Part shown: piece by piece, positions 26,174 to 64,000 of the stretch | Position numbering within the stretch: position 1 is the first letter of the stretch | Layout of the letters: every line of letters starts with the position of its first letter | DNA from: Candidatus Saccharimonadia bacterium | GTDB taxonomy: Bacteria > Patescibacteriota > Saccharimonadia > Saccharimonadales > 2-12-FULL-41-12 | NCBI GenBank assembly: GCA_963717365.1 | Contig: OY970327.1 | Coordinates: forward strand, 651,599-715,598 | Length of the DNA stretch: 64,000 nucleotides | Direction of reading: 5' to 3' | Notes under the pieces: model-generated | The model's input: only the letters and a program-made list of their open reading frames with translations | Told to the model about the DNA's origin: nothing | Databases searched by the model: none | Made by a program: the position numbers and the translations under genes

Positions 26174-26187
26174 AAGATGCTTCACCT

Positions 26188-26222
<35 letters not shown>

Positions 26223-27012: not shown

Positions 27013-27410
27013 CCCCGTCACATTATCTACCATGATAACGCGCATATTAGGGGTCAGCTTTCTATTTGATTTGATACAAAGTATCTCGACATTAACTCGT
27101 AAATAGATCCTACAAAATCCATACCATTGTATATACAGCGGCATAGAAATCATAGTCTCTTAAGATGCGGTTCAGAGAAGTTAAAAACTCTAAATTCGCA
27201 AATTTTTGTTCTTGCCGGCTTTAGTACAGTTGTTTTTGTTGCTATACCTGTGTTTCATTAAATTTTAATGAAGTCGAGGTATAGTACTCGAAACCTTATG
27301 TAGTAAAAGCTTAGAAAACTGGCTAATATGTCACGTGCTGTCAGGTTTCGCAAGCGAAAACTGGATATTTGGCTTGCAAGGCAAGCCACATGATAAACAC
27401 TGTGACGGGG
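27013..27410 (-). other. 23S insertion 1 (about 360 nt extra): stem-bounded expansion/intervening sequence in a variable helix upstream of the CCCGAAGTTACGG block
   Basis: It is bounded by ccccgtcac (27013-27021) and gtgacgggg (27402-27410). The interior is AT-rich with several local hairpins (ggcttgc-aag-gcaagcc at 27371-27387; gtttcgc..gcgaaaac). It has no ORF with a convincing product. It contains module copy b. Confidence 0.7.
27241..27288. repeat. Copy b of the 48-nt near-palindromic module (inverted relative to copies a and c), inside 23S insertion 1
   Basis: Sequence gctatacctgtgtttcattaaattttaatgaagtcgaggtatagtact. Its reverse complement matches copy c at 45 of 48 positions. Confidence 0.85.
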
Positions 27411-28603: not shown

Positions 28604-28634
<31 letters not shown>

Positions 28635-28811
28635 ATCGTAAGATATATTTAGCCTTAGGAGGTGGTCCTCCCAGATTCAAACAGGGTTTCTCGTGCCCCG
28701 TCCTACTCAACAAAACAATAATAAGGTTAGCAACGCTTAACATACCGGGCTTTCACCGTCTTTGGCCAGTCTTTCCAAACTGTTCTGCTCGCATTGCTGA
28801 TTTCTTACCTT

Positions 28812-29082
28812 ATGCAAGATGATGGTAGATCTTGCTGCCAACACGGAACACTGTGTTTTAAGTACTATACCTCGACTTCATTAAAATTTAATGAAACGTT
28901 GGTATAGCTGCGAAAACATGTATCGGCTTGTGGCCGACTCAGTGCTCTGTACTGGTTTTTTGTAATGTTACAACCCCTTTTAGATATTCGTCTACCAACT
29001 TATTTGCCGCCGTTGCCAGCTGCCCTCGCAATCTGTAAACAGATTGGTCAAACAACAAGCTGACAGGCAAAAACCTAAAAAG
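28812..29082 (-). other. 23S insertion 2 (about 250-270 nt extra) in domain I
   Basis: It lies between ...ctgttctgctcgcattgctgatttc and gtttgggctattccagtttcgctcgccactac, where E. coli has only about 20 nt as I recall it. It contains the hairpin gcaagat..atcttgc (28814-28835) and module copy c. Confidence 0.65.
28861..28908. repeat. Copy c of the 48-nt near-palindromic module, inside 23S insertion 2
   Basis: Sequence agtactatacctcgacttcattaaaatttaatgaaacgttggtatagc. The arms pair ctatacc/ggtatag and ttcattaaa/tttaatgaa around a 5x5 internal loop. Confidence 0.85.
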
Positions 29083-29750
29083 TTTGGGCTATTCCAGTTT
29101 CGCTCGCCACTACTCCCGGAATCATTGTTTATTTTCTCTTCCTCTGGGTACTAAGATGTTTCAGTTCCCCAGGTTACCGCTGCCTTGCCTATATATTCAG
29201 CAAAGAGTGATTAGACATGACTCTAACCGGGTTTCCCCATTCGGACATCTTCGGTTCAAAGTTTGATTGGCAACTCCCCGAAGCTTATCGCAGCCTTCTA
29301 CGTCCTTCATCGGTATCTTACGTCCAGGCATCCATTTTGTGCGCTTGAGTAACTTTTTATGAAAGTTAAATGAGACAAAACCTTGGGTTTTTTCTCATCG
29401 CTGCGCTGCTCTTTTTCCTAAGAAGAAAAGCTTATCTCGAAATAAATTCGAGATCGCTTTGATGAAATATGCCTTTGGCTTCTCATTTTGCATTTGACTA
29501 GTTATCGGTAATTACCAGCGAATTTCATTTTACTGAAACCTGCTAAATAACGTTTGCGATAACGATGTCGTCTATTTACTAATGTCAGTCCAAATTTTTA
29601 AGTTGCAAAACTCTAATTCCTTTAAGACAAACAGAGGTAAAACCACCCCATAATTGTTTGTCGGAACTCAAGTTTACGCTTGGGGGTTTGTTCGCTATGG
29701 CTACTGAGCCCGGCGAAACCTCACGGCCTAAACTTGAGGGTAACTTGACT

Positions 29751-34152: not shown

Positions 34153-34314
34153 CTAGATGTCCATTATTTGCATGTCATCCATGATCTGTTCAATCAGGCC
34201 GGTCTGCTTTTTAAGTTTGTAGCGTGATAGTTTTTTGCGCTGAGGCCGGACAACTTCGTAGACAAGCCGATTGTTTGGATTTCCTTTCTTGTTGGTGTGT
34301 ATTTTAGGTGCCAT
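34153..34314 (-). CDS. Possible small basic protein (53 aa) between G3 and the propeller gene
   Basis: It is not in the ORF track. My own translation is MAPKIHTNKKGNPNNRLVYEVVRPQRKKLSRYKLKKQTGLIEQIMDDMQIMDI. The ATG lies 12 nt after the G3 stop. There is no Shine-Dalgarno. Confidence 0.3.
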   Translation of the reverse strand: MAPKIHTNKKGNPNNRLVYEVVRPQRKKLSRYKLKKQTGLIEQIMDDMQIMDI

Positions 34315-44798: not shown

Positions 44799-44910
44799 TT
44801 TGGTTTGGTTTTGGTTTGGTTTGGGATTTGGTGTTAGCTGTTTTTTAGCTGTTAGTTTTTTGAATTTGTTTTGGTTATTTTTTGTTCTGTTTTTTAATAA
44901 CCTGAGCACT

Positions 44911-44959
44911 AGTATGGAGCATCCTGAATAAGGGGTCAATGGTTAATTGAGTACAAAAT
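44911..44959 (-). promoter_or_regulatory. Promoter-like block upstream of G3 (-10 CATACT, -35 TTGACC, upstream ATTTTGTACTC element)
   Basis: The minus strand reads ATTTTGTACTCaattaaccaTTGACC-N17-CATACT, with -10 at complement 44911-44916 and -35 at complement 44934-44939. It is followed by an A/C-rich leader of about 105 nt ending CCAAACCAAACCAAAACCAAACCAAA-ATG. Confidence 0.45.
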
Positions 44960-45601: not shown

Positions 45602-48600
45602 TTATTCAGCGATAAAGTAGTCGTAGCGGTATTCCGTATTCGGCGCCGGCGTACCCTTGGCATTGAACATGACGTCGGTAGCCGTAGCATTGCCCTTATA
45701 GTAGCTAAGGCCAGCCGCCGAATCATTGGACGGGCTTAGCACTACCTTCGGCGCCTTGGAGTAAGCTTTGCTGAATAGTATCTTAGCCAGCTCGCCGGCT
45801 GTAGGCGCCGATCCGGTACGGATAATGATCGTACCGGCGGTATCATTGCCATCTATTATGACAGCCGCCCCTTTACCGCTGGCCCCAAGGACTTGGCTGG
45901 TTGGAGTATCACCGACGGTTATAATGTGGCCTTCCACTATTATATTGGCTTTGAACACGGCATTGCTGGTTACAGTTAAGGAATTAACCGTGGCTGCACC
46001 GGTTACCGTAAGATTTTGAATAGATGCCCCACCAGAGACATTAATGTTCGCGAAACTGGTATTGTTAACCTGCTGCTGCAAGGTTAGGATCTGCTTCTGC
46101 TGGGCTTGGATGGCAGCGGCCAGGTACGGCGTCAGGCCGGCGTATGATACAGAGTAGTAACCTTCGGCGTCCTGCTGTACAAGATCTGGGAAATTATTAA
46201 TGAATTCTTGGGCTATTACACCAGTATGGGCCCGGTCGGAGGAATTTTCGGACAGCATCCGGTAATTTACTACGTTGATGCCTAGTATTTTATTGAGCAT
46301 ATCTTCGCTGGAAGTAGCCGATAAGTCTTTCTTTAGTCTCTGGTCGGAGGTACAGGTAATACCGCCTGCTGTAGTTGGGTTAACCGTACAAGTACCGCCG
46401 GAATTTTGGAAACGGGCCACTGAAGTATCTGCTGTGGTACCGCTGCCAACGTGCAGCAAATACCCGGGGGCACTGTTTGCTATGCCAACCCGCCCATTCT
46501 CGCCAATCACAATTCTCTCAACTACAACGTTAGAAACCGGATCATAGAGTGCCACGCTGAACCGGCCGCCAACTTCATTGACGCCTACATTGTCCGCATT
46601 TAAGTTAATGCTGCCGACTGCCCTGTAGGCGCCACCGACGTATCCATAACCATACATACGAGCTATTAAGTCATTTCCCTGGATATCTGTTGGAGAGGCA
46701 GTAGTGCCGCGTGCTTTATGGAATCTAAGCTCCGACGAAAGGTCGTCGGATGAGGCTCTGCCTAATAGCACCGAGGATTCTGTATAGTTATCACCTTGGA
46801 TATGAAGTCTCAGCGACGGTGCTGTTGTACCAAGCCCAATACTCTTGGTTACGGAGTTGGCACTAAAGAATTCCGTGCCGGCGCCGTTTTGTATACGGAA
46901 GAAGTTGGGAGCATCGAGGCCAGCGCCAGATTTAAATATAATGTCTTTAAGCGTAGAAGTAGTGGCGATAGTTGCCGGTGAACCAGATAAGTCATAAGCA
47001 GCTTGAAGATCGCCGCCGCCGCCACCACCGCCACTACTGCCACCAACTTTGGTCATGGAGAAATAAAGTGGTTGAGAGACGGAGTTAGCGGCTACAGTTT
47101 CGCTGAGACCTGTTGAAGAAGCCATAACTTCTACGTAATCATTCGCGTTCAGGTAATAAGTAGTCGTTGTTGTCATTGAGCCTGAGGACTGACTATCCAA
47201 CGAATCTTTTGATATGTAGGTAGTTGTGCCGTTGAGCCTAATCTGTAAGTTTCTGTCTTCATTACCATCACTGAATGTAACTCCAGCGGAAATCACATAG
47301 GTACCAGCGACCGGCGCGGTAAGGCGAGAGGTGTTGCTTGAAGTAGAATGGAGATTATTAGTATCGTATGTTTCTGTGTTGAAAACCAAAGCTACGAGAG
47401 TAGAGTTCACTGATTGGCTGGCATTATGTGTTACCCGCGCGCTGGCATCGGCATTGCTTACGCATGTACCAGCCGTCACTATACCACCGCTGATAGTAGC
47501 CCCCTGCAAAGCTTCCCCTGCAGCGCAAGTCGCGGATATGCCCGAAACCCCGTTGGCTTGATAACCACCGACAGAGTTAATGGTACCGATAGCTTCAAAA
47601 CTGTCATCAGTTTTTAGCAAATTGCCCGCTGCTGCCCGATAGAGATTAGTGTCTGGTGTACCCGAGCCACCTGAAGCGCTCCAACCAATTTGATTTGTCG
47701 GGCCCAAAACGAACACACCCGAGGTATTAAATCGTGCGTTTTCAACAGTCCCTCCATTCGACTTAAACAGTATCTGGTCATTCGTAGCACCAGAAATAAG
47801 TTGTAAGTAGCCAGTACTTTGCAAAATGCCTCCGCTAGGAAGCAGTATATTGTTTGCTTCGAAGTTACCATCGGTTTTTAGGGTGCCAGCTCCTGATCTA
47901 TAAAGGTTAGTGTCTTGGGCGTTGCCGAAATAAATTGTGGGTAAACCGGGTGTAGGAATATTATTTTGAAGTGATATTTGAGCAGTTGTTCCTTGATACG
48001 AAACAATGCTATTTCCTGCAGTAAAAGTGGTGTCCGTTCTTAAGGTACTACCAGCTGAACGATACAAATTAGTATCCCCGCCAATAGTTATTCCTGAGCT
48101 CTGCCCGCCTGAGTCAGCGATCTGGATGGCTGTTTTGCCTGTGGCGTTGGCATTAATGATTCCGTTGAATGTCTTAATACCACCAAAAATCTGAGTGCCA
48201 CTAGTATTTACCAACCCAGGTGCGCTGGCAGTGGCGCTTTGCAGGATTAAGTTGTTACTACTAATTGTCGCGCCTTGGGCACCGGAACCATTACTGTCGA
48301 AGGTCCCGATAGCGTTTACGCCACTGCCACAACTGCCCCAGATAGGAGCAGTTGAGACACCTTGTGAGATTAGGCATGAGCCTATGGCTACGGCGGCCCT
48401 GCGGGCAAGTGAAGTTGTGGTATTGGCATACAGAAGATCGCCTATAGCATAGGTAGTATGACCGGTACCTCCTACGGTTGCTATGACCGTGCCACTACTG
48501 ATGCTTGAGCCATTTAGTGCTGTTAAATTAGTGCCGACACCGCTGAAGTTACCAGCAGTAACAGTACCGCTAACGTTAATGTGGCCTGTCTGTGGAGATC

Positions 48601-51600
48601 CGGTGGTAGGTTGCAACGAAACACATGCGCCGCAAGTACCTGAGCCTGGAGCGCTCAGGTTAATAGTGCCGGCACCATTAGTTATGACCACTGTCGAGTC
48701 ATTTGAAGTAAGGTTAGCGGCGGTATAATTAGTGCCATTGCCTATAAGAAGCTGGCCGTTGGTAGGAGTTGTAGTAATACCTGTGCCGCCGCGACCCACA
48801 AGGAGAATGCCGCTGTTAATATCACCAGCGTCTAGATTAGTCAGGTTGCTACCATTACCCTGAAAGAATCCGGCAATAATAGTCCCGGAAACATTAATGT
48901 GGCCGGTCTGAGCAGTATCCGGAGTGGCAGCTTTCAGAGCTACACAGGCGGCGCAAGTGCCGGCACCAGGTACAGTAAGGTCGATTGTGCCGGCACCGTT
49001 AGTGATCGTAACGCTGGAGTTAGAGGATGTCAGGTTAGCCGAAGCATAACCGGTACCATTACCAATAAGCAGCTTACCATTTGTTGGCACCGTAGCAATA
49101 CCGGTACCACCATACGCAACCCCTACAAGACCACTGTTAACGTTGGTACCGTTTAAGTTGGTAATATTGACACCGCTTAGGGCGGGGAATGCGCTAGCAG
49201 CAGTTGTTTGGATGAGTTGGCTAACACCGTTAAAGGTGTTGCCTTGCTTAGTGACAACAGCATCTAGGGTAACCGCTCCGACTGAAACATCGAAGTCAGC
49301 AGTCGCAAAACTAGCGATACCCTTTATAGTAGTTGTAGCATCAATAATAGTAATAGCCGAACCGGTAGTAAGTGCGCCGTTGAACGTTAATGATCCGCTT
49401 GCCAAGACAGAACCGCCGGCAGAGCCGGTTATACCGGTCACACCACCACCCACACCGGTACAAGTTCCCCAACTTGGTGCTGCACTTGTGGTAGCCAATA
49501 AACACTGTCCAGTAGTACCAGCCCCTGTAACGCCCAAGGCACTTGTTCCATTACCAAACAGAACGCCGTTCGTCGTAAACGTTCCGGCGCCGGTACCGCC
49601 GCGAGCAACAGTTAAGGAGCCGGCCGTAAAGAAGTTGGCGGCATCGGCATGACTAACGTTTTGTAATACCCCGGAACTATTTATCCGAGTTGTTCCACCG
49701 GCTTGAAGCGCAGTACTAGCGTTGAATGTACCAGCTGCTGTTACGGTTGTGCCTGATTCAGTCAAAATTGAGTTACCTATGGTGGCGCCCGTGCCGGTGT
49801 ACTTAGTGATAGTACCTGCGGTACCAGAGCCGGTGATGCCCCCGCCCGCGCCGGCGCAGTTGCCCGTAGACAGACAGAAGTTAGCGTTGCCGCCAACATC
49901 AGGCACCGTATAAACACGTCCTGCAGCTGAGGTGCCAGTTATACGGAAGTTATTGGTAGCCGTGCCGCCAACATACAGATCGCGGAACGGCTTGGCTGCT
50001 GAACCTAAGTCAATGCTGGCGGTGGCGGGTAGCAAGCTGGTATTGATTGCTACGTTTGCTAAATTGTCTAGCTCAATAGTGGCCAAATCTGGGTCGCTGC
50101 CGCCTCCGCCACAGAAGAATCCATACGTACAAACCGTGCTGTCATCAATTTCTATTGTTATGCTTCCTGCCCCATTGGTGATAATAATTCCAGCGCCTTG
50201 TGTTAAGGTAGCCGCAGTTGGCGCGCCAGTGCCGTCACCAATCAGTAATTGTCCGTTTGTTAGCACGCTGCTGGCAGTAATGGCGCCGGTGCCGTTACCA
50301 AACAAAATACCGCCGGAAGTAAGCGTGGTAGCGCCGGTGCCGCCCCTATCAACCATAAGTGTGCCAGTAGTACCTGAGCCAATAATCAAGCCGGTAGCAT
50401 CCACCAGGTTAAACGCCGGAGTTAAGTCGCTAGCGCCAAGGGAAACGCTTACGCCGCCGAAGTTAACGGCGCTGCTTACCAAGTCTCCGTTTGCTATTGT
50501 GCCGTCTGTAATCTCTCCCGATTCAATAGTCTGGCCTAGTTTTGTAACATTAGACCCTAAGCTAACCGCGCCAGCCGTGACGCTGAAGTCAGTACTGCTA
50601 AAGCTGGCAATACCCTTAGTGGTAGTCGTAGCGTTGTTAATAGTAATAGCAGAACTGGTTGTAGCCGCGTCATTAAATGTTATTGCCCCTGCCGCGGCAA
50701 CAGAGCCGCCGGCAGTACCAGTGATGCTGTTAACAGCGCCTGAACCTGTACAGTTGCCCCACGTTGGTGCCAACCCGGTGTTGCCTAATAGGCACTGCCC
50801 GGTGGCTCCAGCGGCGGTAGCGGTAATAGCGCTAGTACCGTTGCCTAACAATACGCCGTTTGCGCCAAGGGTCGCGGCGCCGGTACCGCCCTTGTTCACA
50901 TTAAGCGTACCGCTTAAGTTATTGATGGCTATGTTTGCTTCAACCACATCTAGGGTTGGGTTGCCGGCTACGCCGTTGCCGTTTGTTACCCCAAGCTTGC
51001 TAGAGCCAGCCGTTATGGTGCGGCCGGTAAAGGTATCAGCTGCAGTTTGGACAATTAATCCGTTCGTATTGTAAGCAGACAGTGATGTAAGGGTACTGTC
51101 GGCAGCTTGCTTACCGGTAAATTGGGTCTGGATATTGCTGCTAACTCCATCCAGGGCTGCCAGCTCGGTACTTTGAAGCGTTACGCCGCCAACTGTTATG
51201 GCGTTTGTTCCAAGCGCCAAGGCAGTAGCGTTTGCAAAGGTAACTGTTTCGTTGAATGTTTTGGCACCAGCAAAGGTTTGCGTGCCGGTGCTGACAAGGC
51301 CGGCAAAGCCGGCATCAGCCGTCTGCATAAATATATTGCTGCCGCTGATAAAGGCGCCGTCAGCGGCTTTAACTCCGCCGTTACCAGTATCAATTGTACC
51401 AACGGTAGTTACGCCAGTGCCGCCGGGCTGGCAAGAACCCCAGATAATAGTCGTGCCGTTCGAAGTCAAACACTCGCCAGGAGCCCCTCGTCCCAAACGG
51501 GTAGAGTTAGTACCGTTGTGGTAAAGCAGGTCGCCGTTGGTAGTCAGTTGCGAGATGTTATTAATAGCAGCCTGCGAAGTAGTAGCATTTGTACCGCCGT

Positions 51601-54600
51601 TAGCAATTGGCAATGTACCGGTTACTTCACTGCCGGCCGTACTTAAGGTAACGCTAGTCCCCAGCGTAGTCTCCAGTACCCCGGCGTTAAAGGCCAGGCC
51701 GGTGCCGGTCAGGTCGCTAAAGGCTTCGCCGTTAATAGTAATGACTTGGCCACTGGTGACAGTAAGGCCAGTAGCGAACACAGCCGTACCGTTAAACGTC
51801 TTAGCGCCGGCAAAGGTCTGGACGCCGGTGGTGACGGTACCGGCGACGGTGGCGCTGGCGTTAGATACCGTTAAGGTAACAGCATCAGGTGTAGCACCGG
51901 TGTTTAGGCTGAAGGTAGTACCAGCCACGGTACCAGTAGCAGTGGTATCAATAAAGTCGGCGTCAGTTGCAGCGGCGCCGTTAACGGATACCGAGTCACC
52001 AACACCTGCTCCGCCGGCATCGGTGCCGCAGACTAGGTTGCCGGAAGCATCGGTATCGATGCTGTCACAGTTAGCTAGGCCACCAACCCGGAGGTTAGCT
52101 GCACCAGCACCGCTGTTATCTAGGAACAAGGTAGTGTTGGCGCTATCTACTAGATCAAAGGTGTAAGTACCGGCGGCAGTACGGCGGATGGTAGTATCGG
52201 ATCCATCAATAAGTAGAATGTTACTACCGGAGTCAATTGTTAGGGCAACGACGCTGCTCTGGATCAGTGGCGTGGTGACACTGGTACCGAAGGTTGGGTT
52301 GGCGACGGTGGCTATGGTTAAGGTACCGTTAGCACCGCCGTCGGTGAAGGCGGCGATGTTAGTACCATTAGTCAGGACCCGTTCGTTGGTTAGGTTGCTA
52401 TCCAGGCCAAGTGTTAAGTAACTGGCGTTGTTGGGAGCAGCTGCACCGGCACCAGAGCCAACACAGTTACCGGTGGAGAGACAGACGTTGGCCGATGCAC
52501 CGGTAAAGTCTGGGAACAGATACGTCTTGTCTCCAGCCAGGTCAGCTACGTCAAAGGTACCGTAGAAGCTTGGGGTGCCGCCATTCTCCAGCATACGCAG
52601 TTCAGATGAGCTGTTGTTAAGTACTAGGTCAAAGGCACCACCCTGCATGTAGTCGGCAGTAAGGTTACCCAGGGCAATTGCCCGGGAGGTACCTTCACCG
52701 GCGCTGCCGCCGATGCCAATGCCGTTGCCGGCAGTGACGTCGCCGACGTAGTTGCCAGTCGTCTGGGTACCGAGTGCTACGGCATTGTTAGCAATATCTA
52801 CGCCGGCTACCTGGCCGTCGGTTATCTCGGTGGAGTCGATGCTCGTCCCCAGTGTAGTCTCCAGCTGTCCAGCATTAAAGCTTAGGCCGGTGCCGGTCAG
52901 GTCGCTAAAGGCTTCGCCGTTAATAGTAATGACTTGGCCACTGGTGACAGTAAGGCCAGTAGCGAACACAGCCGTACCGTTAAACGTCTTAGCGCCGGCA
53001 AAGGTCTGGACGCCGGTGGTGACGGTACCGGCGACGGTGGCGCTGGCGTTAGATACCGTTAAGGTAACAGCATCAGGTGTAGCACCGGTGTTTAGGCTGA
53101 AGGTAGTACCAGCCACGGTACCAGTAGCAGTGGTATCAATAAAGTCGGCGTCAGTTGCAGCGGCGCCGTTAACGGATACCGAGTCACCAACACCTGCTCC
53201 GCCGGCATCGGTGCCGCAGACTAGGTTGCCGGAAGCATCGGTATCGATGCTGTCACAGTTAGCTAGGCCACCAACCCGGAGGTTAGCTGCACCAGCACCG
53301 CTGTTATCTAGGAACAAGGTAGTGTTGGCGCTATCTACTAGATCAAAGGTGTAAGTACCGGCGGCAGTACGGCGGATGGTAGTATCGGATCCATCAATAA
53401 GTAGAATGTTACTACCGGAGTCAATTGTTAGGGCAACGACGCTGCTCTGGATCAGTGGCGTGGTGACACTGGTACCGAAGGTTGGGTTGGCGACGGTGGC
53501 TATGGTTAAGGTACCGTTAGCACCGCCGTCGGTGAAGGCGGCGATGTTAGTACCATTAGTCAGGACCCGTTCGTTGGTTAGGTTGCTATCCAGGCCAAGT
53601 GTTAAGTAACTGGCGTTGTTGGGAGCAGCTGCACCGGCACCAGAGCCAACACAGTTACCGGTGGAGAGACAGACGTTGGCCGATGCACCGGTAAAGTCTG
53701 GGAACAGATACGTCTTGTCTCCAGCCAGGTCAGCTACGTCAAAGGTACCGTAGAAGCTTGGGGTGCCGCCATTCTCCAGCATACGCAGTTCAGATGAGCT
53801 GTTGTTAAGTACTAGGTCAAAGGCACCACCCTGCATGTAGTCGGCAGTAAGGTTACCCAGGGCAATTGCCCGGGAGGTACCTTCACCGGCGCTGCCGCCG
53901 ATGCCAATGCCGTTGCCGGCAGTGACGTCGCCGACGTAGTTGCCAGTCGTCTGGGTACCGAGTGCTACGGCATTGTTAGCAATATCTACGCCGGCTACCT
54001 GGCCGTCGGTTATCTCGGTGGAGTCGATGCTCGTCCCCAGTGTAGTCTCCAGCTGTCCAGCATTAAAGCTTAGGCCGGTGCCGGTCAGGTCGCTAAAGGC
54101 TTCGCCGTTAATAGTAATGACTTGGCCACTGGTGACAGTAAGGCCAGTAGCGAACACAGCCGTACCGTTAAACGTCTTAGCGCCGGCAAAGGTCTGGACG
54201 CCGGTGGTGACGGTACCGGCGACGGTGGCGCTGGCGTTAGATACCGTTAAGGTAACAGCATCAGGTGTAGCACCGGTGTTTAGGCTGAAGGTAGTACCAG
54301 CCACGGTACCAGTAGCAGTGGTATCAATAAAGTCGGCGTCAGTTGCAGCGGCGCCGTTAACGGATACCGAGTCACCAACACCTGCTCCGCCGGCATCGGT
54401 GCCGCAGACTAGGTTGCCGGAAGCATCGGTATCGATGCTGTCACAGTTAGCTAGGCCACCAACCCGGAGGTTAGCTGCACCAGCACCGCTGTTATCTAGG
54501 AACAAGGTAGTGTTGGCGCTATCTACTAGATCAAAGGTGTAAGTACCGGCGGCAGTACGGCGGATGGTAGTATCGGATCCATCAATAAGTAGAATGTTAC

Positions 54601-57600
54601 TACCGGAGTCAATTGTTAGGGCAACGACGCTGCTCTGGATCAGTGGCGTGGTGACACTGGTACCGAAGGTTGGGTTGGCGACGGTGGCTATGGTTAAGGT
54701 ACCGTTAGCACCGCCGTCGGTGAAGGCGGCGATGTTAGTACCATTAGTCAGGACCCGTTCGTTGGTTAGGTTGCTATCCAGGCCAAGTGTTAAGTAACTG
54801 GCGTTGTTGGGAGCAGCTGCACCGGCACCAGAGCCAACACAGTTACCGGTGGAGAGACAGACGTTGGCCGATGCACCGGTAAAGTCTGGGAACAGATACG
54901 TCTTGTCTCCAGCCAGGTCAGCTACGTCAAAGGTACCGTAGAAGCTTGGGGTGCCGCCATTCTCCAGCATACGCAGTTCAGATGAGCTGTTGTTAAGTAC
55001 TAGGTCAAAGGCACCACCCTGCATGTAGTCGGCAGTAAGGTTACCCAGGGCAATTGCCCGGGAGGTACCTTCACCGGCGCTGCCGCCGATGCCAATGCCG
55101 TTGCCGGCAGTGACGTCGCCGACGTAGTTGCCAGTCGTCTGGGTACCGAGTGCTACGGCATTGTTAGCAATATCTACGCCGGCTACCTGGCCGTCGGTTA
55201 TCTCGGTGGAGTCGATGCTCGTCCCCAGTGTAGTCTCCAGCTGTCCAGCATTAAAGCTTAGGCCGGTGCCGGTCAGGTCGCTAAAGGCTTCGCCGTTAAT
55301 AGTAATGACTTGGCCACTGGTGACAGTAAGGCCAGTAGCGAACACAGCCGTACCGTTAAACGTCTTAGCGCCGGCAAAGGTCTGGACGCCGGTGGTGACG
55401 GTACCGGCGACGGTGGCGCTGGCGTTAGATACCGTTAAGGTAACAGCATCAGGTGTAGCACCGGTGTTTAGGCTGAAGGTAGTACCAGCCACGGTACCAG
55501 TAGCAGTGGTATCAATAAAGTCGGCGTCAGTTGCAGCGGCGCCGTTAACGGATACCGAGTCACCAACACCTGCTCCGCCGGCATCGGTGCCGCAGACTAG
55601 GTTGCCGGAAGCATCGGTATCGATGCTGTCACAGTTAGCTAGGCCACCAACCCGGAGGTTAGCTGCACCAGCACCGCTGTTATCTAGGAACAAGGTAGTG
55701 TTGGCGCTATCTACTAGATCAAAGGTGTAAGTACCGGCGGCAGTACGGCGGATGGTAGTATCGGATCCATCAATAAGTAGAATGTTACTACCGGAGTCAA
55801 TTGTTAGGGCAACGACGCTGCTCTGGATCAGTGGCGTGGTGACACTGGTACCGAAGGTTGGGTTGGCGACGGTGGCTATGGTTAAGGTACCGTTAGCACC
55901 GCCGTCGGTGAAGGCGGCGATGTTAGTACCATTAGTCAGGACCCGTTCGTTGGTTAGGTTGCTATCCAGGCCAAGTGTTAAGTAACTGGCGTTGTTGGGA
56001 GCAGCTGCACCGGCACCAGAGCCAACACAGTTACCGGTGGAGAGACAGACGTTGGCCGATGCACCGGTAAAGTCTGGGAACAGATACGTCTTGTCTCCAG
56101 CCAGGTCAGCTACGTCAAAGGTACCGTAGAAGCTTGGGGTGCCGCCATTCTCCAGCATACGCAGTTCAGATGAGCTGTTGTTAAGTACTAGGTCAAAGGC
56201 ACCACCCTGCATGTAGTCGGCAGTAAGGTTACCCAGGGCAATTGCCCGGGAGGTACCTTCACCGGCGCTGCCGCCGATGCCAATGCCGTTGCCGGCAGTG
56301 ACGTCGCCGACGTAGTTGCCAGTCGTCTGGGTACCGAGTGCTACGGCATTGTTAGCAATATCTACGCCGGCTACCTGGCCGTCGGTTATCTCGGTGGAGT
56401 CGATCGACTGACCAAGTTTTGAAACAGCAGCATTCAGGCTAACTGCGCCGCCTGTAACATCGAAGTCAGCAGCAGTAAAGGAAGCGATACCTTTATTAGT
56501 GGTAGTAGCATCATCGATAGTAATAACGGCACCAGTGCCGGTAGCGTTATTAATAGTAAGCGCGCCGGTTAAGCCCTCTAATGAAGCCACCCCTCCAGCG
56601 CCAGTACAAGTGCCGAAAGTTGGAGCACTACCAGTGTTAGCCAACAGACACTGGCCGGTAGTACCGGCAGCTGTCGCGCCAATTGCACTAGTAGCATTGC
56701 CGAATAAGACACCATTACTAGCAAATGTGCCAGCGCCGGTGCCACCGCGAGCAACTGCCACCGTACCAGTAGTTAGTTCAGAAGCGTTTAAGTCAGTGAT
56801 ACCGGATCCATTACCTTGCAAATTAGTTGCAACCAATGTGCCGCCAACAGTGATGGTAGCACCCGATTCAGTAATAATAGAGTCGACAATGTTTTGGGAC
56901 GCATCAAACTTAGCGATCTTGCCAGGCGTGCCAGCGCCGGTAATCGAAGATCCAGCCCCGCCGTCATCAGCCGAACAAATCAGATTGCCGGAAGCGTCAG
57001 TTGTTAAAGCACCGCCATTACCAGCAGTACTACAGTTGTAGGCGCCCAGGTTAAGCAAGCCGGTAGCCCCTATAGTAACCCGGGTAACTCCGCCGGTTTC
57101 CAGGTTAAAAGCAAACGCGTCGTTAGTACCAAGCGTGAGAGCCGCAGTGAAAGTATTGCCGCCCTGCAGGACGTCACCATTGCCGCCGGTACCAGCACAG
57201 TTACCGGTGTTGCGGCAAACAGTACTATCAACTGCAACCGTCGGGCTGGTACCCTCGCCGGCTGCACCAGTAACGGTAATCCCATCTCCAGCCGTAGTGA
57301 AGGCTTGGTAGTTCCCCGTCGTCTGGCTGCCAAGTGCTACGGCGTCACTAGCGATGTCGATGCCGGCGATGGTGCCGTTAACAATTTCGGTGGTATCAAT
57401 AGTAGTGCCTAAAGTAGTTTCCAGTACGCCGCTGGTTACCTGAAGTCCGGTACCGACTAAGTTAGATATGGCTACTCCATTAATAGTAAGAGCTTGGCCA
57501 GTCGTGACAGTAAGGCCGGTTGCGAACACGGCGGTGCCATTAAACGTCTTAGCGCCGGCAAAGGTCTGGACGCCGGTGGTGACGGTACCGGCTTCAGTAG

Positions 57601-60600
57601 CAGAAGCGTTTGTAACACTTAAGGATACGGCGTCAGGGGAAGCACCGGTATTAAGAGTCCAGCTCAGGCCAGCCGTGGTACCGGAAACGGCTGTATCAAT
57701 AAAGTTAGCATCAGAAGCACCAGCCCCGTTAACGGAAATGCTGTCACCAACGCCTGCGCCACCGGCGTCAGCACCACAGACTAGGTTACCGGAAGCGTCG
57801 GTATCGATGGTGTCACAGTTGGCTAGGCCGCCAACTCGGAGGTTAGCTGCACCAGCACCGCTGTTATCTAGGAACAATGTAGTGTTAGCGCTATCGCTCA
57901 AGTCAAAGGTGTAGGTGCCGGCGGCAGTACGGCGGATGGTGGTATCGGTACCGTCAATTAATAAGATGTTGGAGCCGGAGTCAATCGTCAGGGCGGCAGC
58001 ACTCTGCAGTAGCGGTGTAGTCACGCTGGTACCAAAGGTTGGGTTAGCAATAGTACTAATAGTAAGCGTGCCGTTGGCACCGCCATCTGTGAAGGCGGCA
58101 ATGTTAGTACCATTAGTGAGAACCCGTTCGGCAGTTAAGCTTGGATCAAGGCCTAGTGTTAGATAAGACGCGTTGTTTGGAGCGGCCGCACCAGCGCCGC
58201 TGCCAACACAGTTGCCAGTACTCAGACAAACGTCGGCGGTAGCGCCGCCGAAGGTTGGGAATACATACGTCTTGTCGCTATCCAGGTCAGCTACGTCAAA
58301 GCTGCCGTAGAAGCTGGCACCAGCGCCGTTCTCAAGAATACGCAGTTCAGACGAACTGTTAGCTAGAACCAGGTCAAAGGCACCGCCCTGCATGTAGTCG
58401 GCCGTTAGGTTGCCCAGAGCGATGGCCCGGGAGGTACCTTCGCCAGCCGCACCGCCGATGCCAATACCATTGCCGGCAGTGACGTCACCGACGTAATTCC
58501 CCGTCGTCTGGCTGCCAAGTGCTACGGCGTCACTAGCGATGTCGATGCCGGCTATGGTGCCGTTAACAATTTCGGTGGTATCAATAGTAGTGCCTAAAGT
58601 AGTTTCCAGTACGCCGCTGGTTACCTGAAGTCCGGTACCGACTAAGTTAGATATGGCTACTCCATTAATAGTAAGAGCTTGGCCAGTCGTGACAGTAAGG
58701 CCGGTTGCGAACACGGCGGTGCCATTAAACGTCTTAGCGCCGGCAAAGGTCTGGACGCCGGTGGTGACGGTACCGGCTTCAGTAGCAGAAGCGTTTGTAA
58801 CACTTAAGGATACGGCGTCAGGGGAAGCACCGGTATTAAGAGTCCAGCTCAGGCCAGCCGTGGTACCGGAAACGGCTGTATCAATAAAGTTAGCATCAGA
58901 AGCACCAGCCCCGTTAACGGAAATGCTGTCACCAACGCCTGCGCCACCGGCGTCAGCACCACAGACTAGGTTACCGGAAGCGTCGGTATCGATGGTGTCA
59001 CAGTTGGCTAGGCCGCCAACTCGGAGGTTAGCTGCACCAGCACCGCTGTTATCTAGGAACAATGTAGTGTTAGCGCTATCGCTCAAGTCAAAGGTGTAGG
59101 TGCCGGCGGCAGTACGGCGGATGGTGGTATCGGTACCGTCAATTAATAAGATGTTGGAGCCGGAGTCAATCGTCAGGGCGGCAGCACTCTGCAGTAGCGG
59201 TGTAGTCACGCTGGTACCAAAGGTTGGGTTAGCAATAGTACTAATAGTAAGCGTGCCGTTGGCACCGCCATCTGTGAAGGCGGCAATGTTAGTACCATTA
59301 GTGAGAACCCGTTCGGCAGTTAAGCTTGGATCAAGGCCAAGTGTTAGATAAGACGCGTTGTTGGGGGCAGCCGCGCCGGCGCCGGATCCGACGCAGTTGC
59401 CAGTACTCAGACAAACGTCGGCGGTAGCGCCGCCGAAGGTTGGGAATACATACGTCTTGTCGCTATCCAGGTCAGCTACGTCAAAGCTGCCGTAGAAGCT
59501 GGCACCAGCGCCGTTCTCAAGAATACGCAGTTCAGACGAACTGTTAGCTAGAACCAGGTCAAAGGCACCGCCCTGCATGTAGTCGGCTGTCAGGTTACCC
59601 AGAGCGATGGCCCGGGAGGTACCTTCGCCAGCCGCACCGCCGATGCCAATACCATTGCCGGCAGTGACGTCACCGACGTAGTTCCCCGTCGTCTGGCTGC
59701 CAAGTGCTACGGCGTCATTGGCGATGTCGATGCCGGCTATGGTGCCGTCGGTGATCTCGGTAGATTCAATTGATTGGCCAAGCTTCGTAACGTTAACGTT
59801 CAAACTAACTGCGCCGGCAACAACAGTAAAGTCAGTAGTCGCAAAGGAAGCAATGCCTTTCGCAGTAGTAGTAGCATCGTCAATAGTGATAATGCTGCCG
59901 CTACCAGTGGCGTTGTTAATAGTAAGGACGCCGGTCAGACCATCCAAGGATGCCACGCCCCCAGAACCAGGACAAACGCCAAAGCTGGGAGCACTGCCCG
60001 TAGTAGCTAATAGACACTGGCCGGTGGTGCCAGCTGCTGTCGAGTCAATCGCACTAGTACCGTTACCAAACAGAACGCCGTTAGTAGTAAAGGTACCAGC
60101 GCCAGTGCCGCCGCGGGCAACGGTAACAGTACCAGTAGTAAGATTAGATCCGTTTAAGTCAGTGATGCCGGAACCATTGCCCTGCAGGTTAGTTGCAACC
60201 AATGTGCCACCAACAGTTACAGTAATACCCGATTCAGTAATAATAGAGTTGACTATATTCTGCGAAGCATCGAACTTAGCAATACTGCCAGCCGTGCCGG
60301 TACCGGTAATGGCGGCAGCTGCGCCGTTGTCATCGTTCTGGCAGATCAGGTTGCCTGACGCGTCAGTTGTCAGCACGCCCCCATTGCCAAAAATACTACA
60401 GTTGTAGGCACCTAAGTTAAGTAAACCGGTGTTACCAATCGTAACGCGGGTGATGCCAGCAGTCTCCAAGTTAAGAGAGAAGTTATCATTTGTACCAAGA
60501 GTCAGCGTCGAGCCAAAGCTATTACCTCCTTGTAGAACATTGCCATTGCCCCCAACCCCAGCACAGTTGCCAGTTGTTCGACACACCGTTGTATCTACTG

Positions 60601-62089
60601 CAACATTATCAGCGTTTACCGTAATTCCATCGCCTGCGCCGATATCAAGAGTAGCGACTCCGCCCAAGCTAACTACACCGCCATTGAACAACCCTCCGCC
60701 TGCTGTAACTGTCAGGCTAGAGTTAGTTAAATCTATGTTGGCTATTGAGCCATCAGAAACTTTACTGCCATCAACCGAATTAGACTCCAGCTCAGCCATA
60801 CCAATAGTTTGACCCAGCAATGAAACGCTGGAATCAAGCCTAAGGTTGCTCAAAGTACCGGCATTAAGATTACTGGCACTCTGGTAATACGAGCCAGTCT
60901 GGCCGTTTAACTGGATAGCGTTAACATTTGTCACACCAGAGCCATCACCAGTGAAGCTAGCAGCCGTAGTGGCGCCGGTAATTGCTGTATCGCCCGTTAC
61001 CGCTAAATCCCCGTTTACAGTAATCACGGTGGCTGACTGGGTCAAAATTGAATCAGCAATTATCTGGGAAGCCGTGAATACCGGTATAGTACCGCTGGTT
61101 CCGGTACCGTTAATGGCACCAGCCGCTCCACCGTCATCATCGCTACAAATCACTTGCCCACTAGCATTGGCAGTCAGTGCACCACCATTCAGGTTAGTCG
61201 TACAATTTAAGCTGGAGAGAGTCAGAGTACTGGCAAACGTTACTGCCCCACTAGCGTTTATGCTGCCAATGGTAATACCAGCGAAGGTTGGACTTGAGGT
61301 TACATTAATATCTTGGGGTGTTGTCAGGGTAAAGGTACCGGCACTGGCGTTAACGCTGATCTGGTTAGAAGTCCCTTGTATCAACAAGCCGCCGCTCTGA
61401 TTGTTGATAGAGCTTACCTTTGGGTCTCCGGCGGAGGTATCACTAATTCTGATGTTACCGCCGTTATTGGTGATCAACAAGTTAGCCGTGCCGGCTGTAA
61501 TGCTCTGGATGCCAGCGATCTGGGCGCTTGGGGCTGGTATTAGCCCCCTCAGAGTCTGAAATTGTGCCTGTGTGACATACTCACAGTTATTGGCGTCAAG
61601 ACATATCACTCCCGAAGCATTTGGAAGCGTATAAGTCTGGCTCTTGTTGTTTAGGCTAGAAACAAAGGTACCACTCACAACCTTAAGGTTGCCGCGAATC
61701 GCAACATCTCCATTGACTAATACTGATTCTTTGGCACCCTGTAACTCCGAAGGTAAGTTAATATCTGAGCCTTGCTGGATAGTTACCTCTTGGGTAGGAA
61801 TAGCGCTTCGTAAGTTGCCATCTTCGGTTAGATTATTATTTCTAGTCTGATAGGCTATAGTCGCGCCTGTAAGGATCAGGACAACGGCGGTAATAATACA
61901 CGAAACAATGGTAGCTTTTTGGCGGTAAAACGGCGTGCGCACAACGCTGGGCAGTACATACTCAGGACTAGTTGCATCTACAGGGAGCAAAACAGGGCTG
62001 TTAAGGTCCACTTGCGGGTGCCCAAAATCAACACCGGCAGAATTTTGACGGCTTTCTTGGGGTTGATTTGGATTTTTATTTGGAAACAT
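45602..62089 (-). CDS. Giant surface fibre protein G4 (5495 aa): short cytoplasmic N-terminus, TM anchor, modular fibre with 395/396-aa tandem repeats, C1q-like domain, S74-like domain, C-terminal module
   Basis: Uninterrupted 16.5-kb ORF starting at ATG 62089. The TM helix is [22 protein letters not shown], about 55 aa from the N-terminus. The GGTG motif ([19 protein letters not shown]) and the Cys-pair motif (NC....NGG.LT.DASGNL.C..DDGG) recur many times. Confidence 0.85.
46070..46360 (-). other. S74-like chaperone/autoproteolysis domain of G4
   Basis: Sequence [96 protein letters not shown]. The Ser-Asp codons are at complement 46343-46348. Confidence 0.65.
47050..47440 (-). other. C1q/TNF-like jelly-roll domain in G4, followed by a poly-Gly linker
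   Basis: Sequence [140 protein letters not shown]. The pattern (F.....YD....F......F.AP..G.Y......V........L..NG........Y.L...D.V.V) is typical of C1q-like tips of BclA and phage fibres. Confidence 0.5.
51657..56405 (-). repeat. 1188-bp (396-aa) in-frame tandem repeat, 4.0 copies (type B), apparently identical
   Basis: Shadow ORFs at 52188, 53376, 54564 and 55752, and at 52752, 53940 and 55128, give identical peptides with period 1188. The unit starts [36 protein letters not shown]... and ends ...[12 protein letters not shown]. Confidence 0.9.
57311..59750 (-). repeat. 1185-bp (395-aa) in-frame tandem repeat, about 2.06 copies (type A), homologous to type B
   Basis: Shadow ORF pairs 57468/58653 and 57915/59100 are identical with period 1185. 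The unit starts [36 protein letters not shown]... Each array is preceded in the protein by a homologous X module of about 300 aa (coded at 56405-57310 and about 59750-60650). Confidence 0.9.
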
Positions 62090-62195
62090 TTTGATTTGTT
62101 TTATTTTTGTTTTAGCTATTTTATATATAACTAAACTACACTATACTCCACTGTCAACACCTTACCTAGTACTTTGAACACAAAATTTACTTAGG

Positions 62196-62204
62196 TTATC
62201 CACA
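62196..62204 (+). promoter_or_regulatory. Perfect DnaA-box 9-mer TTATCCACA (followed by G) upstream of G4
   Basis: Read directly as taggTTATCCACAggttaa, 107 nt upstream of the G4 ATG. TTGAACACAAAAT lies at 62174-62186. A TTGACA hexamer is at complement 62152-62157. Confidence 0.4.
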
Positions 62205-62292
62205 GGTTAAATTTAGTAAGTACTTGTTATTATTGTATTTATAACAATATATTTTACCAAAAAACATCGTTAATATTAAATTTTGTGTTCGT

Positions 62293-63144
62293 TTAAATGC
62301 TCACAATAGCATAGATTGCGGCTACTCCAACCAGCATAACCACTATCACTAATCCTAATACTCTGAGCAATTCAGTCTGAATAATCCTCTTTGAGAATGG
62401 ATTTCGTCCCATCGATATGATTGAACTTGATACGGCTCCATAAACAATTGCCCCTTCCGCCACAATTACTATTAGGAAGATAGCCAACGCTGCTAATACC
62501 TGGATTAGGCCTATGTCTTTACCTGTTACTTTTTTACCAAATATTTCAAGTTGTGTTTTATCTTCAATTGTCTGGCCTGGTTTTTCGGTAGTCAAGGAGT
62601 TAGCCAAAGAAATAGTCATTTTTCCTACCATGACAATGCGTTCGCTGTCATTCACTCTAATCGTCTGCGGCTCCGCGTCATCGCTATTAAAGTCCTCTAA
62701 GGCCTCTCCAAGATTCCCCTTATCTGCCTCCGCGCGCATTAGAACCCCTTTAATAGGTGATATAGTAAGTGAGTCACCTTTTTTAATAGCGCCACTCACA
62801 TCGCTTACAAGTGCCTCGACGGTACCACTAGTTTGGACATATGCCTGCTGCTCTCCCGAAGCCAGGGTAACGAGGTTATCTTTAGGATCTGTGGTAATTC
62901 CAATAAGTTTACTGGTAGTTTCTTGCGTAGCCCGTTCAATTTTCGGCTTGTCAGCGGTGCTTGAGCCGCTTAAAGCTGCAAGCATCCCCGTCCTCAGATC
63001 ACGATCTTCCGTAATGTAACCCTTTGCAAAACTTTGAGCTAATGCAGCGGCGCTCGCAAAAAGAATAATTAACAGCGTAGTGACCCCAATAAATAAAATA
63101 AGAGTTTGGCTTCGCCCAGTGCTTCTAGCTAAATTTGCCTTCAT
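62293..63144 (-). CDS. Membrane protein (N-terminal anchor plus two C-terminal TM helices), hypothetical
   Basis: I prefer ATG 63144 (MKANLARSTGRSQTLILFIGVTTLLIILFASAAALA...), because the track start at 63183 is a TTG. The C-terminus reads IGLIQVLAALAIFLIVIVAEGAIVYGAV...LLRVLGLVIVVMLVGVAAIYAIV. It lies directly upstream of G4. Confidence 0.6.
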   Translation of the reverse strand: MKANLARSTGRSQTLILFIGVTTLLIILFASAAALAQSFAKGYITEDRDLRTGMLAALSGSSTADKPKIERATQETTSKLIGITTDPKDNLVTLASGEQQAYVQTSGTVEALVSDVSGAIKKGDSLTISPIKGVLMRAEADKGNLGEALEDFNSDDAEPQTIRVNDSERIVMVGKMTISLANSLTTEKPGQTIEDKTQLEIFGKKVTGKDIGLIQVLAALAIFLIVIVAEGAIVYGAVSSSIISMGRNPFSKRIIQTELLRVLGLVIVVMLVGVAAIYAIVSI

Positions 63145-63252
63145 GTTTATGTTTAGTATGAGCTGACTAACGATAATAATCAATGTAACATCTTAAAAGC
63201 GCTGTTTATATAATTATGAAAGGAACAAATTAAGTAACTTATTGATTTAAGA

Positions 63253-63274
63253 GCCTGCTTATTTCTAAGCAGGC
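63253..63274 (-). terminator. Hairpin downstream of tRNA-Ile (candidate terminator of the tRNA unit)
   Basis: GCCTGCTT (63253-63260) pairs with AAGCAGGC (63267-63274). On the minus strand it is followed by TCTTAAATC, a weak U-tract. Confidence 0.45.
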
Positions 63275-63288
63275 TGCGTATGCAATTC

Positions 63289-63365
63289 TGGTGGGCGATG
63301 AGGGATTCGAACCTCCGACCTCGTCATTATCAGTGACGCGCTCTAACCAACTGAGCTAATCGCCC
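63289..63365 (-). tRNA. tRNA-Ile (anticodon GAU), CCA encoded
   Basis: The reverse complement folds as GGGCGAT TA GCTC AGTTGGTTA GAGC G CGTCA CTGATAA TGACG AGGTC GGAGG TTCGAAT CCCTC ATCGCCC ACCA. This is a cloverleaf with one A-C mismatch in the T stem. Confidence 0.85.
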
Positions 63366-63570
63366 GTATAGTGATATACGGCTAACTTGTTAATTTACTG
63401 CGCTCAGTTGGCGAGAGCATCTATCGCTTACTCTGCAGCTGCGCTGCGCCAACCGAGCTAATCGCCCGTATAGTGATATACGGCTAACTTGTTAATTTAC
63501 TGCGCTCAGTTGGCGAGAGCACACTTTTTTAAGCTTGCAGCGAAGCTGCGCCAACCGAGCTAGTCGCCTG
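63347..63570 (-). repeat. 102-bp tandem repeat (2.2 units) duplicating the tRNA-Ile 5' acceptor/D-arm fragment plus its leader
   Basis: ccaacYgagctaRtcgccYg occurs at 63347, 63449 and 63551 (period 102). tatagtgatatacggctaacttgttaatttactgcgctcagttggcgagagca occurs at 63367 and 63469, identical in both. The second and third units are truncated tRNA-like 5' halves (GGGCGATTAGCTCGGTTGGCGCAG... and GGCGACTAGCTCGGTTGGCGCAG...). Confidence 0.8.
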
Positions 63571-63583
63571 CATTACTAAATTA

Positions 63584-63660
63584 TGGTGGAGCGTCGGGGA
63601 CTCGAACCCCGGACCCCCTGCTTGCAAAGCAGGTGCTCTAGCCAACTGAGCTAACGCCCC
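63584..63660 (-). tRNA. tRNA-Ala (anticodon UGC), CCA encoded
   Basis: The reverse complement folds as GGGGCGT TA GCTC AGTTGGCTA GAGC A CCTGC TTTGCAA GCAGG GGGTC CGGGG TTCGAGT CCCCG ACGCTCC ACCA. This is a perfect cloverleaf with the G3:U70 alanine identity pair. Confidence 0.92.
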
Positions 63661-63703
63661 ATAATCTGTATCGAGCTGCTGTTTCTCTGTTACAACAGAG
63701 GTT

Positions 63704-63732
63704 ATTGTACCTAAAATTAGACTATTTAACAA
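63704..63732 (-). promoter_or_regulatory. Sigma-70-like promoter of the tRNA-Ala/tRNA-Ile unit
   Basis: The minus strand reads TTGTTA (complement 63727-63732), N17, TACAAT (complement 63704-63709), about 40 nt upstream of tRNA-Ala. Confidence 0.5.
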
Positions 63733-63791
63733 CTCTTTTATTGTATGGTCTTTTTATGATTTCCTCCGATTGAGCTATGAATTTAACTGTC

Positions 63792-63873
63792 TTTTCAATT
63801 CTACACACTGAGTGTGTAATTATGGCAGTCACAATACACATATGGCACAACATCGAGTGTGTAGAATTGAAAA
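63792..63873. promoter_or_regulatory. 18-bp perfect inverted repeat plus inner palindrome built from the same AGTGTGTA/TACACACT 8-mer as 45310..45370
   Basis: TTTTCAATTCTACACACT (63792-63809) is the exact reverse complement of AGTGTGTAGAATTGAAAA (63856-63873). The inner palindrome TACACACT-G-AGTGTGTA is at 63802-63818. A TATGGCA direct repeat occurs at 63821 and 63841. Confidence 0.5.
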
Positions 63874-63920
63874 CGTATAAATTGACTCCATATCAGGTAA
63901 CACTAATTGGTCTGTAAAAT

Positions 63921-63946
63921 AACAAACCTCCTAATGGAGGTTTGTT
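63921..63946 (-). terminator. Hairpin, possible terminator of a minus-strand gene lying beyond the window end
   Basis: AACAAACCTCC, loop TAAT, GGAGGTTTGTT. On the minus strand it is followed by ATTTTAC. Confidence 0.4.
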
Positions 63947-64000
63947 ATTAGGCCTTAGCCAGCTAAAAATCAAGATAGTGCAAATCAAACGTCAAATTCG

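Follow-up and report, generated by a model that had tools for sequence, protein, structure and literature searches.

The 64,000-nt window analysed here (contig OY970327.1, positions 651,599 to 715,598 of the forward strand) belongs to a member of Candidatus Saccharibacteria (TM7) with a genome of approximately 1.2 Mb, and contains a small operon in which tRNA-Ala(TGC) and tRNA-Ile(GAT) are separated by two tandem units of 102 nt, designated A and B in the order of transcription. Each unit begins with a dead copy of the 5' end of tRNA-Ile and includes, farther on, a segment complementary to tRNA D-arms (the anti-D segment). On balance, these units are probably a local, lineage-specific by-product of duplication in the spacer between the two tRNA genes, neutral or mildly costly to the host, and not a dedicated regulator.

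The observation that carries this reading is that copy B of the tRNA-Ile 5' end is a chimera. In an alignment of the three copies, the leader that precedes copy B and its positions 1-13 are identical to the live tRNA-Ile gene (including G1 and T7), and from position 14 onward (G14, then CGCAGC) copy B is identical to copy A. Such a chimera reads as the signature of unequal homologous exchange or of slipped mispairing within the hexamer TAGCTC (positions 8-13), and an event of this kind involving the live 5' end and the dead fragment would account for the step from one unit to two. Duplication by slippage or unequal exchange had been one of several origins offered in an initial annotation of this DNA, and the chimera lends it support. 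The chimeric copy itself and the mosaic divergence of the units described below appear to be new relative to that annotation.

Structure of the repeat units

The tandem repeat found by Tandem Repeats Finder at 63347-63568 has a period of 102 bp, 2.2 copies and 88% matches. The first 19 nt of tRNA-Ile (GGGCGATTAGCTCAGTTGG) occur on the minus strand without mismatch at 63347-63365, which is the live gene, with one mismatch at 63449-63467, and with three mismatches at 63551-63569; the only further match is tRNA-Ala itself, and 0.01 matches are expected from shuffled sequences. Both searches bear out the three copies at a 102-bp period that had been noted earlier. A 21-mer of the units (GCTCTCGCCAACTGAGCGCAG) is present in exactly two places, 63398-63418 and 63500-63520, and none would be expected by chance. 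The earlier statement that only the last copy continues into a complete gene, leaving two functional tRNAs, also holds: ARAGORN and Rfam find exactly two tRNAs around the repeat, both on the minus strand and at approximately 70 bits each.

The operon and its flanking features all lie on the minus strand, in the order tRNA-Ala(TGC), unit A, unit B and tRNA-Ile(GAT). Both tRNA genes are complete with CCA encoded, tRNA-Ala at 63584..63660 (ARAGORN; Rfam tRNA, 69.7 bits) and tRNA-Ile at 63289..63365 (ARAGORN; Rfam, 70 bits). A unique 14-nt spacer, TAATTTAGTAATGC (63570..63583), leads from tRNA-Ala to the fragment that opens unit A (63468..63569), and unit B (63366..63467) follows directly. In transcript sense each unit consists of tRNA-Ile nucleotides 1-19, a mini-hairpin, a variable patch, the anti-D segment, an AU-rich linker and a 7-bp hairpin, with 83 nt between one repeated tRNA piece and the next.

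Both dead fragments carry G at the near-invariant A14 of tRNA-Ile: fragment A (AGGCGACTAGCTCGGTTGG, 63551-63569) has three mismatches to the tRNA, and fragment B (63449-63467) has this A14 to G substitution as its single mismatch. Right after nucleotides 1-19 stands a 5-bp mini-hairpin of the form CGCAGC-NNN-GCTGC, which is GCAGC-TTC-GCTGC in unit A (63537-63549) and GCAGC-GCA-GCTGC in unit B (63435-63447). The variable patches are at 63522-63544 and 63420-63442, respectively, and approximately 15 nt of unrelated sequence separate the mini-hairpin from the anti-D segment in each unit. The anti-D segment (GTGCTCTCGCCAACTGAGC; 63500-63522 in unit A and 63398-63420 in unit B) is followed by GCAG and the AU-rich linker (63484-63499 and 63382-63397), and then by a hairpin, CCGTATA-TCAC-TATACGG, whose two final G double as nucleotides +1 and +2 of whatever comes next, either a further fragment or the live tRNA. 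This hairpin is found at 63468-63483 in unit A, as CCGTATA-TCAC-TATAC(GG), and at 63366-63381 in unit B, where it abuts the +1 position of tRNA-Ile.

The anti-D segment is best described, from sequence comparison, as an inverted copy of a whole D-arm that is closest to the D-arm of tRNA-Ala. Its best match is to the reverse complement of the tRNA-Ala D-arm (GCTCAGTTGGCTAGAGCAC), at 18/19 positions (95%), followed by the reverse complement of the tRNA-Ile D-arm (63340-63356), at 15/17 positions (88%). The complementarity to both D-arms that had been pointed out earlier is thus real and longer than was stated. What the initial annotation missed is the inverted tRNA-Ala D-arm identity, along with the mosaic nature of the units and the fact that the host is a saccharibacterium with unlinked rRNA genes. 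The tRNA-Ala D-arm and the anti-D segments are 110-208 nt apart, and the anti-D segment is a reverse-complement copy of nearby sequence of the kind expected from template switching, which is a documented source of reverse-complement copies and, in RNA genes, of hairpins (PMC8794818).

Origin of the units and competing explanations

In the favoured history, the first unit to arise would have set a dead duplicate of the 19 nt at the tRNA-Ile 5' end ahead of the live gene, and the same new leader would have gained a reverse-complement copy of a D-arm, most simply as the product of a replication template switch from the neighbouring tRNA-Ala D-arm. Unequal exchange or slipped mispairing in TAGCTC would then have doubled the 102-nt unit and left the chimeric copy B, a step that can be read directly from the sequence. 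The whole stretch may be transcribed as one precursor, in which each emerging anti-D segment would fold back on the decoy fragment just upstream of it through 12 bp, one of them G-U. With both anti-D segments masked, the genuine D-arm would be free to enter the cloverleaf, and the units would be discarded as spacer by RNase P cleavage at tRNA-Ile +1 and by trimming of the tRNA-Ala 3' end. Tolerance of the arrangement may be explained by the decoy partner that accompanies every anti-D segment.

Structures were obtained as nearest-neighbour predictions, which ignore tRNA tertiary structure, modification, co-transcriptional processing and folding order. Taken alone, each unit has a minimum-energy fold that combines the mini-hairpin and the leader hairpin with the predicted 12-bp stem between fragment and anti-D segment (63549-63560 with 63504-63515 in unit A, and 63447-63458 with 63402-63413 in unit B), including the single G-U pair that had been proposed earlier; the unit hairpins in these folds have z-scores of -2.3 to -2.6. 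Folds of successive prefixes of the transcript indicate that the anti-D segments are also able to take the tRNA-Ala D-arm. In the order of folding, the first partner that an anti-D segment encounters is its own decoy fragment.

Several results weigh against the duplication by-product as formulated above. When the last leader and tRNA-Ile are folded together, the anti-D segment pairs with the genuine D-arm in a 16-bp helix at -47.7 kcal/mol, versus only -31.0 kcal/mol for the leader folded alone beside the cloverleaf, a gap of approximately 17 kcal/mol. The whole stretch from tRNA-Ala to tRNA-Ile likewise folds at -157.3 kcal/mol, versus -140.6 kcal/mol with the cloverleaf, and in the ensemble the tRNA-Ile D-arm pairs with one or other anti-D segment with a probability of 0.996. 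The earlier suggestion that the last anti-D segment could pair with the genuine tRNA is therefore predicted in silico more strongly than it was made. Because the anti-D segment is predicted to prefer the genuine D-arm over the decoys, the idea of masking rests on folding order, and the leader may have a real effect on maturation. A second difficulty is the mosaic divergence of the units: 14 of the 16 differences between units A and B fall inside a 23-nt patch of equal length in both (p ~1e-9), and there are no differences in the last 54 nt (p ~1e-6). Judged from the alignment, such clustering would not be predicted by plain duplication followed by even drift, and it calls for a further process, either the replacement of several bases at once or else selection or gene conversion acting on the flanks. 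No source for either variable patch was found on either strand of the 64-kb window, where the sole match of at least 11 nt is a single chance-level 15/17 (E = 40, 34208-34224); the others are 9-10-mers at chance level.

The best surviving alternative, rather unlikely in itself, is that the repeat is a functional structured leader, as had also been contemplated in the initial annotation. The anti-D segment would then be a cis antisense to the D-arm of pre-tRNA-Ile, and possibly of pre-tRNA-Ala, that blocks the cloverleaf; the decoys would be anti-antisense elements, and the balance of the two pairings would set the speed of tRNA-Ile maturation. The predicted 16-bp helix, with its energetic advantage of ~17 kcal/mol over the cloverleaf and its ensemble probability of 0.996, argues for such a function, as does the pairing of the anti-D segment, which is fully Watson-Crick with the live D-loop (A14) and includes a G-U with the decoys. 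The leader hairpin takes in G+1 and G+2 beside the RNase P site. The leader would matter if the tRNA-Ile(GAT) gene of this operon is the only one in the genome, and ARAGORN identifies no second tRNA-Ile gene in the 64-kb window, where the 23S and 5S rRNA genes are also without adjoining tRNAs. The 54 nt that comprise the anti-D segment and the leader are the same in both units next to a scrambled patch, which could reflect selection, but this identity fits recent duplication or gene conversion equally well. Set against a functional leader are the lack of any Rfam family match even at E <= 1, the disregard of tRNA tertiary structure and folding order by nearest-neighbour energies, and the mutation that the fragments carry at an invariant position, which is what dead copies would be expected to show. 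Quite doubtful is the more specific proposal, based on these pairings, of a folding switch for a tRNA that is possibly essential and single-copy, in which the anti-D segment would capture the nascent tRNA-Ile D-arm in competition with the decoys, the single-stranded GCUCU tail of the decoy hairpin would serve as a toehold, and the number and strength of the units would set tRNA-Ile(GAU) maturation.

Scars of site-specific recombination, another origin suggested earlier, are unlikely. Repeated integration or accretion of attachment (att) sites, by an element that recombines in the D-loop of tRNA-Ile and supplies a leader and 5' end of its own, followed by loss of the bodies of the elements, could have left an attL-attI-attR arrangement like that of a CIME (a remnant element flanked by att sites). 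Consistent with this are three direct tRNA copies of 19-25 nt that share a sharp boundary between GGTTGG and CGCAGC, a junction (leader-GGGCGATTAGCTCGGTTGG-CGCAGC) laid out like an attP site, and variable centres that could be differing remnants of elements. Integrases that target tRNA genes, however, duplicate the 3' part of the tRNA, starting in the anticodon or T loop, and those att duplications that have been described carry an integrase gene. Here it is the 5' part that is duplicated, with positions 1-19 reaching only into the D-loop, the 3' 25 nt of tRNA-Ile are found just once in the window, and no integrase, excisionase, transposase or recombinase domain was detected by Pfam in the open reading frames (ORFs) scanned, namely those of at least 150 aa outside the four giant genes described below and the 400-aa end segments of the giant ORFs. 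The absence of a nearby integrase had been remarked on earlier, and it holds for these ORFs. Integration of elements commonly yields tRNA fragments (PMC9897764), and partial tRNAs of this origin resemble the present case in being direct repeats of part of a tRNA, only one of which lies in a complete gene; the repeats in the described cases flank 9-23 kb of element DNA (PMC9897764), but the inserts here are 83 nt. Searches of IMG/VR with the junction and leader sequences gave no match, and homologous exchange alone explains the chimeric copy B. In three defining features, then (no recombinase domain in the scanned ORFs, the 5' instead of the 3' end, and 83-nt inserts), the locus departs from a recombination scar.

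It is very unlikely that the units are decayed tRNA genes, derived from a former tandem array of whole tRNAs or from hybrids of an Ile 5' part and an Ala 3' part that arose by unequal crossing-over in the D-arm. The sequence TTAGCTCAGTTGG is common to tRNA-Ala and tRNA-Ile and is a possible substrate for exchange; the distance from the start of tRNA-Ala to fragment A (91 nt) and the 102-nt unit both approximate one tRNA plus a short spacer; and the centres of the units bear a weak collinear likeness to the tRNA-Ala anticodon arm (TGCAAGC; AGCGCAGCTGC versus AGAGCACCTGC). However, in local and global alignments the unit interiors do not resemble either tRNA body significantly more than shuffled sequences do (p = 0.08 to 0.9), and neither ARAGORN nor Rfam recognizes a tRNA-like fold in the units.

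That a small dispersed mobile repeat, such as a miniature inverted-repeat transposable element (MITE), a repetitive extragenic palindrome (REP) or a BOX-like element, landed twice beside tRNA-Ile is highly improbable. The 12-bp inverted arms, the sub-terminal hairpins and the unit length of approximately 100 nt would suit such an element, but the arms are tRNA sequence and not specific to an element. The initial annotation had named a generic dispersed element as a possibility to be checked, and no other copy of the unit was found in the 64-kb window or, as zero matches, in three public collections: the hairpin pattern TAGCTCRGTTGGCG-N15-45-CGCCAACYGAGC is absent from species-representative genomes, JGI metagenomes and IMG/VR. 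Two patterns covering the junction and the leader gave no matches in IMG/VR, the sole collection searched with them. A mis-expanded repeat in the assembly, also raised earlier, is the least probable explanation of all, since the three copies differ in a structured way (the 23-nt patch, three mismatches in fragment A and the chimera) that errors of collapse or expansion do not create, making simple assembly stutter unlikely, and the source sequence seems to be one contig of 1.19 Mb, even if short-read contigs of the source organism and of two relatives break inside tRNA-Ile.

Known systems and related loci

The closest analogue of this arrangement is the set of 178-bp repeats of the tyrT-tyrV operon of E. 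coli (rttR/rtT RNA, tpr), one unit of which encodes the small RNA rttR (PMC3318445). In the E. coli K-12 reference, 3.1 copies of 178 bp were verified at 1205-1763 of the sequence examined (L031), overlapping the last 19 nt of tyrV. Both loci are tandem repeats within a tRNA operon, the repeated unit in each takes in one end of the neighbouring tRNA gene, and both fit unequal recombination at a short tRNA-derived repeat. Whereas the E. coli unit of 178 bp takes in the 3' end, lies downstream of the tRNA and has no inverted copy, the saccharibacterial unit of 102 bp takes in the 5' end, lies in the upstream leader and contains an inverted D-arm. There is no similarity of sequence or structure between the two, and Rfam finds no match to rtT RNA in 60000-64000 at E <= 1 and none anywhere in the window at the gathering threshold.

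Other comparisons concern single aspects of the repeat. Template-switch (quasipalindrome) mutations resemble the anti-D segment in that a short reverse-complement copy of nearby sequence makes a perfect stem (PMC8794818), although template switching is a mutational mechanism and not a family of elements. Spacers cut out of polycistronic tRNA precursors can act by base pairing, as in the 3'ETS-leuZ sponge according to the summary of Lalaouna et al. 2015 given in PMC8166272, and some role for the present spacer is conceivable; unlike that sponge, the units here have a predicted complementarity to the tRNAs of their own transcript. The split tRNA pieces of Nanoarchaeum are true halves, split after the anticodon and joined in trans. 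They have in common with the present units a tRNA 5' piece followed by sequence that pairs with another RNA piece, but the fragment in these units ends within the D-loop, the full gene exists as well, and the window contains no stand-alone 3' piece.

Several known classes of element were considered and set aside. A CRISPR (clustered regularly interspaced short palindromic repeat) array, which has at least three identical repeats of 23-47 nt with unique spacers, would be represented by only two 73-nt blocks 29 nt apart, and no cas domain was found in the Pfam scans of the window ORFs. Integron attC sites, REP/RAYT elements and IS200/IS605-type ends do not correspond in arm order (GTT...AAC here, and not AAC...GTT), have no dispersed copies in the window or the collections searched, and do not make a 19-nt duplication of the kind observed. 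Known cis-regulatory leaders (T-box, attenuators, ribozymes) gave no match at E <= 1 with Rfam release 15, which in 63289-63700 finds the two tRNAs; one further match, to Plastid-ycf2, is antisense, overlaps tRNA-Ile and is far below the gathering score.

In most bacteria, tRNA-Ile and tRNA-Ala are located in the spacer between the 16S and 23S rRNA genes, but here they form a small operon of their own with tRNA-Ala first. The rRNA genes of the window, 23S (25822-29359) and 5S (25355-25469), are on the minus strand, and Rfam finds neither a 16S gene nor spacer tRNAs beside them in the window; the rRNA genes are therefore unlinked. The 23S rRNA gene spans 3538 nt compared with a model of 2925 nt, indicating an insertion of roughly 600 nt.

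Related loci were sought through homologues of the 283-aa membrane protein encoded downstream of tRNA-Ile, and 25 were found; it is these homologues that assign the window to Candidatus Saccharibacteria. Only two of them (L001 and L025, with 78% and 60% protein identity, respectively) have tRNA-Ile directly 5' of the membrane protein gene. The tRNA is absent at this position in the relative with 56% identity (L024), and at the 22 loci with identity of 50% or less (L002-L023) there is no tRNA near the homologue; in L002 and L003, the two with called genes listed, rplU (ribosomal protein L21) is upstream instead. The presence of the tRNA at this locus only in the closest relatives points to the placement of tRNA-Ala and tRNA-Ile here being a recent, lineage-specific rearrangement. 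The short-read contigs of L001 and L025 stop inside tRNA-Ile, short of the spacer. When metagenomes were scanned with the 3' end of tRNA-Ile plus GAAT, the only matches were tRNA-Val genes from unrelated organisms.

Short-read (Logan) contigs from three samples/species share one starting base within tRNA-Ile (T29, 63336, TCACTGATAATG...). The source organism is sampled in run ERR12037361, and L001 and L025 come from SRR22388172 and SRR22356415, respectively. The repeat would predict a break of k = 31 contigs near 63382 and not at 63336, and therefore something else must share this 30-mer.

Surroundings of the operon and significance

A strong hairpin with a T-run at 63949-63918 ends the upstream gene. 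The operon is presumed, from the consensus match, to be transcribed from a promoter-like site, TTGTTA-17-TACAAT (63704..63732), which has 9/12 matches in a consensus scan and lies approximately 44 nt 5' of tRNA-Ala; such sites are no more frequent in this region than in shuffled sequences. The scan called no internal promoter in the spacer, where the leader candidates TTAACA-17-TATACG and TATATC lack either the conserved last T or the right spacing. No intrinsic terminator was called between tRNA-Ala and tRNA-Ile, the hairpins there having no U-run after them. Possible small proteins from the spacer were discounted: paired ORFs of 24 aa (plus strand) and 20 aa (minus strand) that start with TTG simply follow from the repeat, and a 67-aa ORF across the spacer was judged spurious. 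Just 3' of tRNA-Ile, an inverted-repeat pair forms a 10-bp hairpin, AGCCTGCTTA-GAAA-TAAGCAGGCT (63252..63275), beyond which lie the gene of the 283-aa membrane protein and then an ORF of 5495 aa. The T-run after this hairpin is poor, and equivalent hairpins in L001 and L025 are followed by T-runs; read-through from tRNA-Ile into the membrane protein gene is possible.

Between the upstream terminator hairpin and the promoter-like site of the tRNA operon there is a perfect 18-bp inverted repeat (63792-63809 and 63856-63873, with a spacer of 46 nt), which is unique within the window and has a folding z-score of -5. Candidate identities are an operator, a small RNA and the end of an element.

Most of the window is filled by four giant ORFs on the minus strand, at 2952-10862 (2636 aa), 11918-24922 (4334 aa), 34326-44939 (3537 aa) and 45602-62089 (5495 aa), in which long tandem repeats recur internally, the period being ~639 bp around 6079-9284 and 1188 bp around 52437-56009. 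A pair of the giant ORFs encode a Peptidase_S74 (endosialidase chaperone) domain near the C-terminus, and the 4334-aa ORF starts with two MerR/HTH_17 DNA-binding domains. The G+C content reaches 64-65% at 6001-10000, inside the 2636-aa ORF, compared with 41-56% elsewhere, and this peak coincides with the 639-bp coding repeats.

If the leader really slows the maturation of tRNA-Ile by pairing with its D-arm, the operon would be a simple and testable case of antisense regulation of a tRNA by its own leader; control of maturation through antisense pairing between a leader and the tRNA body would be of a type not described so far. If the units are what they seem to be, by-products of local duplication, they illustrate cleanly, on a small scale, the way in which short repeats derived from tRNAs may seed local duplications, with the crossover point still visible, and provide an instance of an inverted copy of a tRNA arm persisting in a tRNA leader of a very reduced genome. 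For annotation, the lesson is that 5' fragments of tRNA genes need not mark integrated elements.

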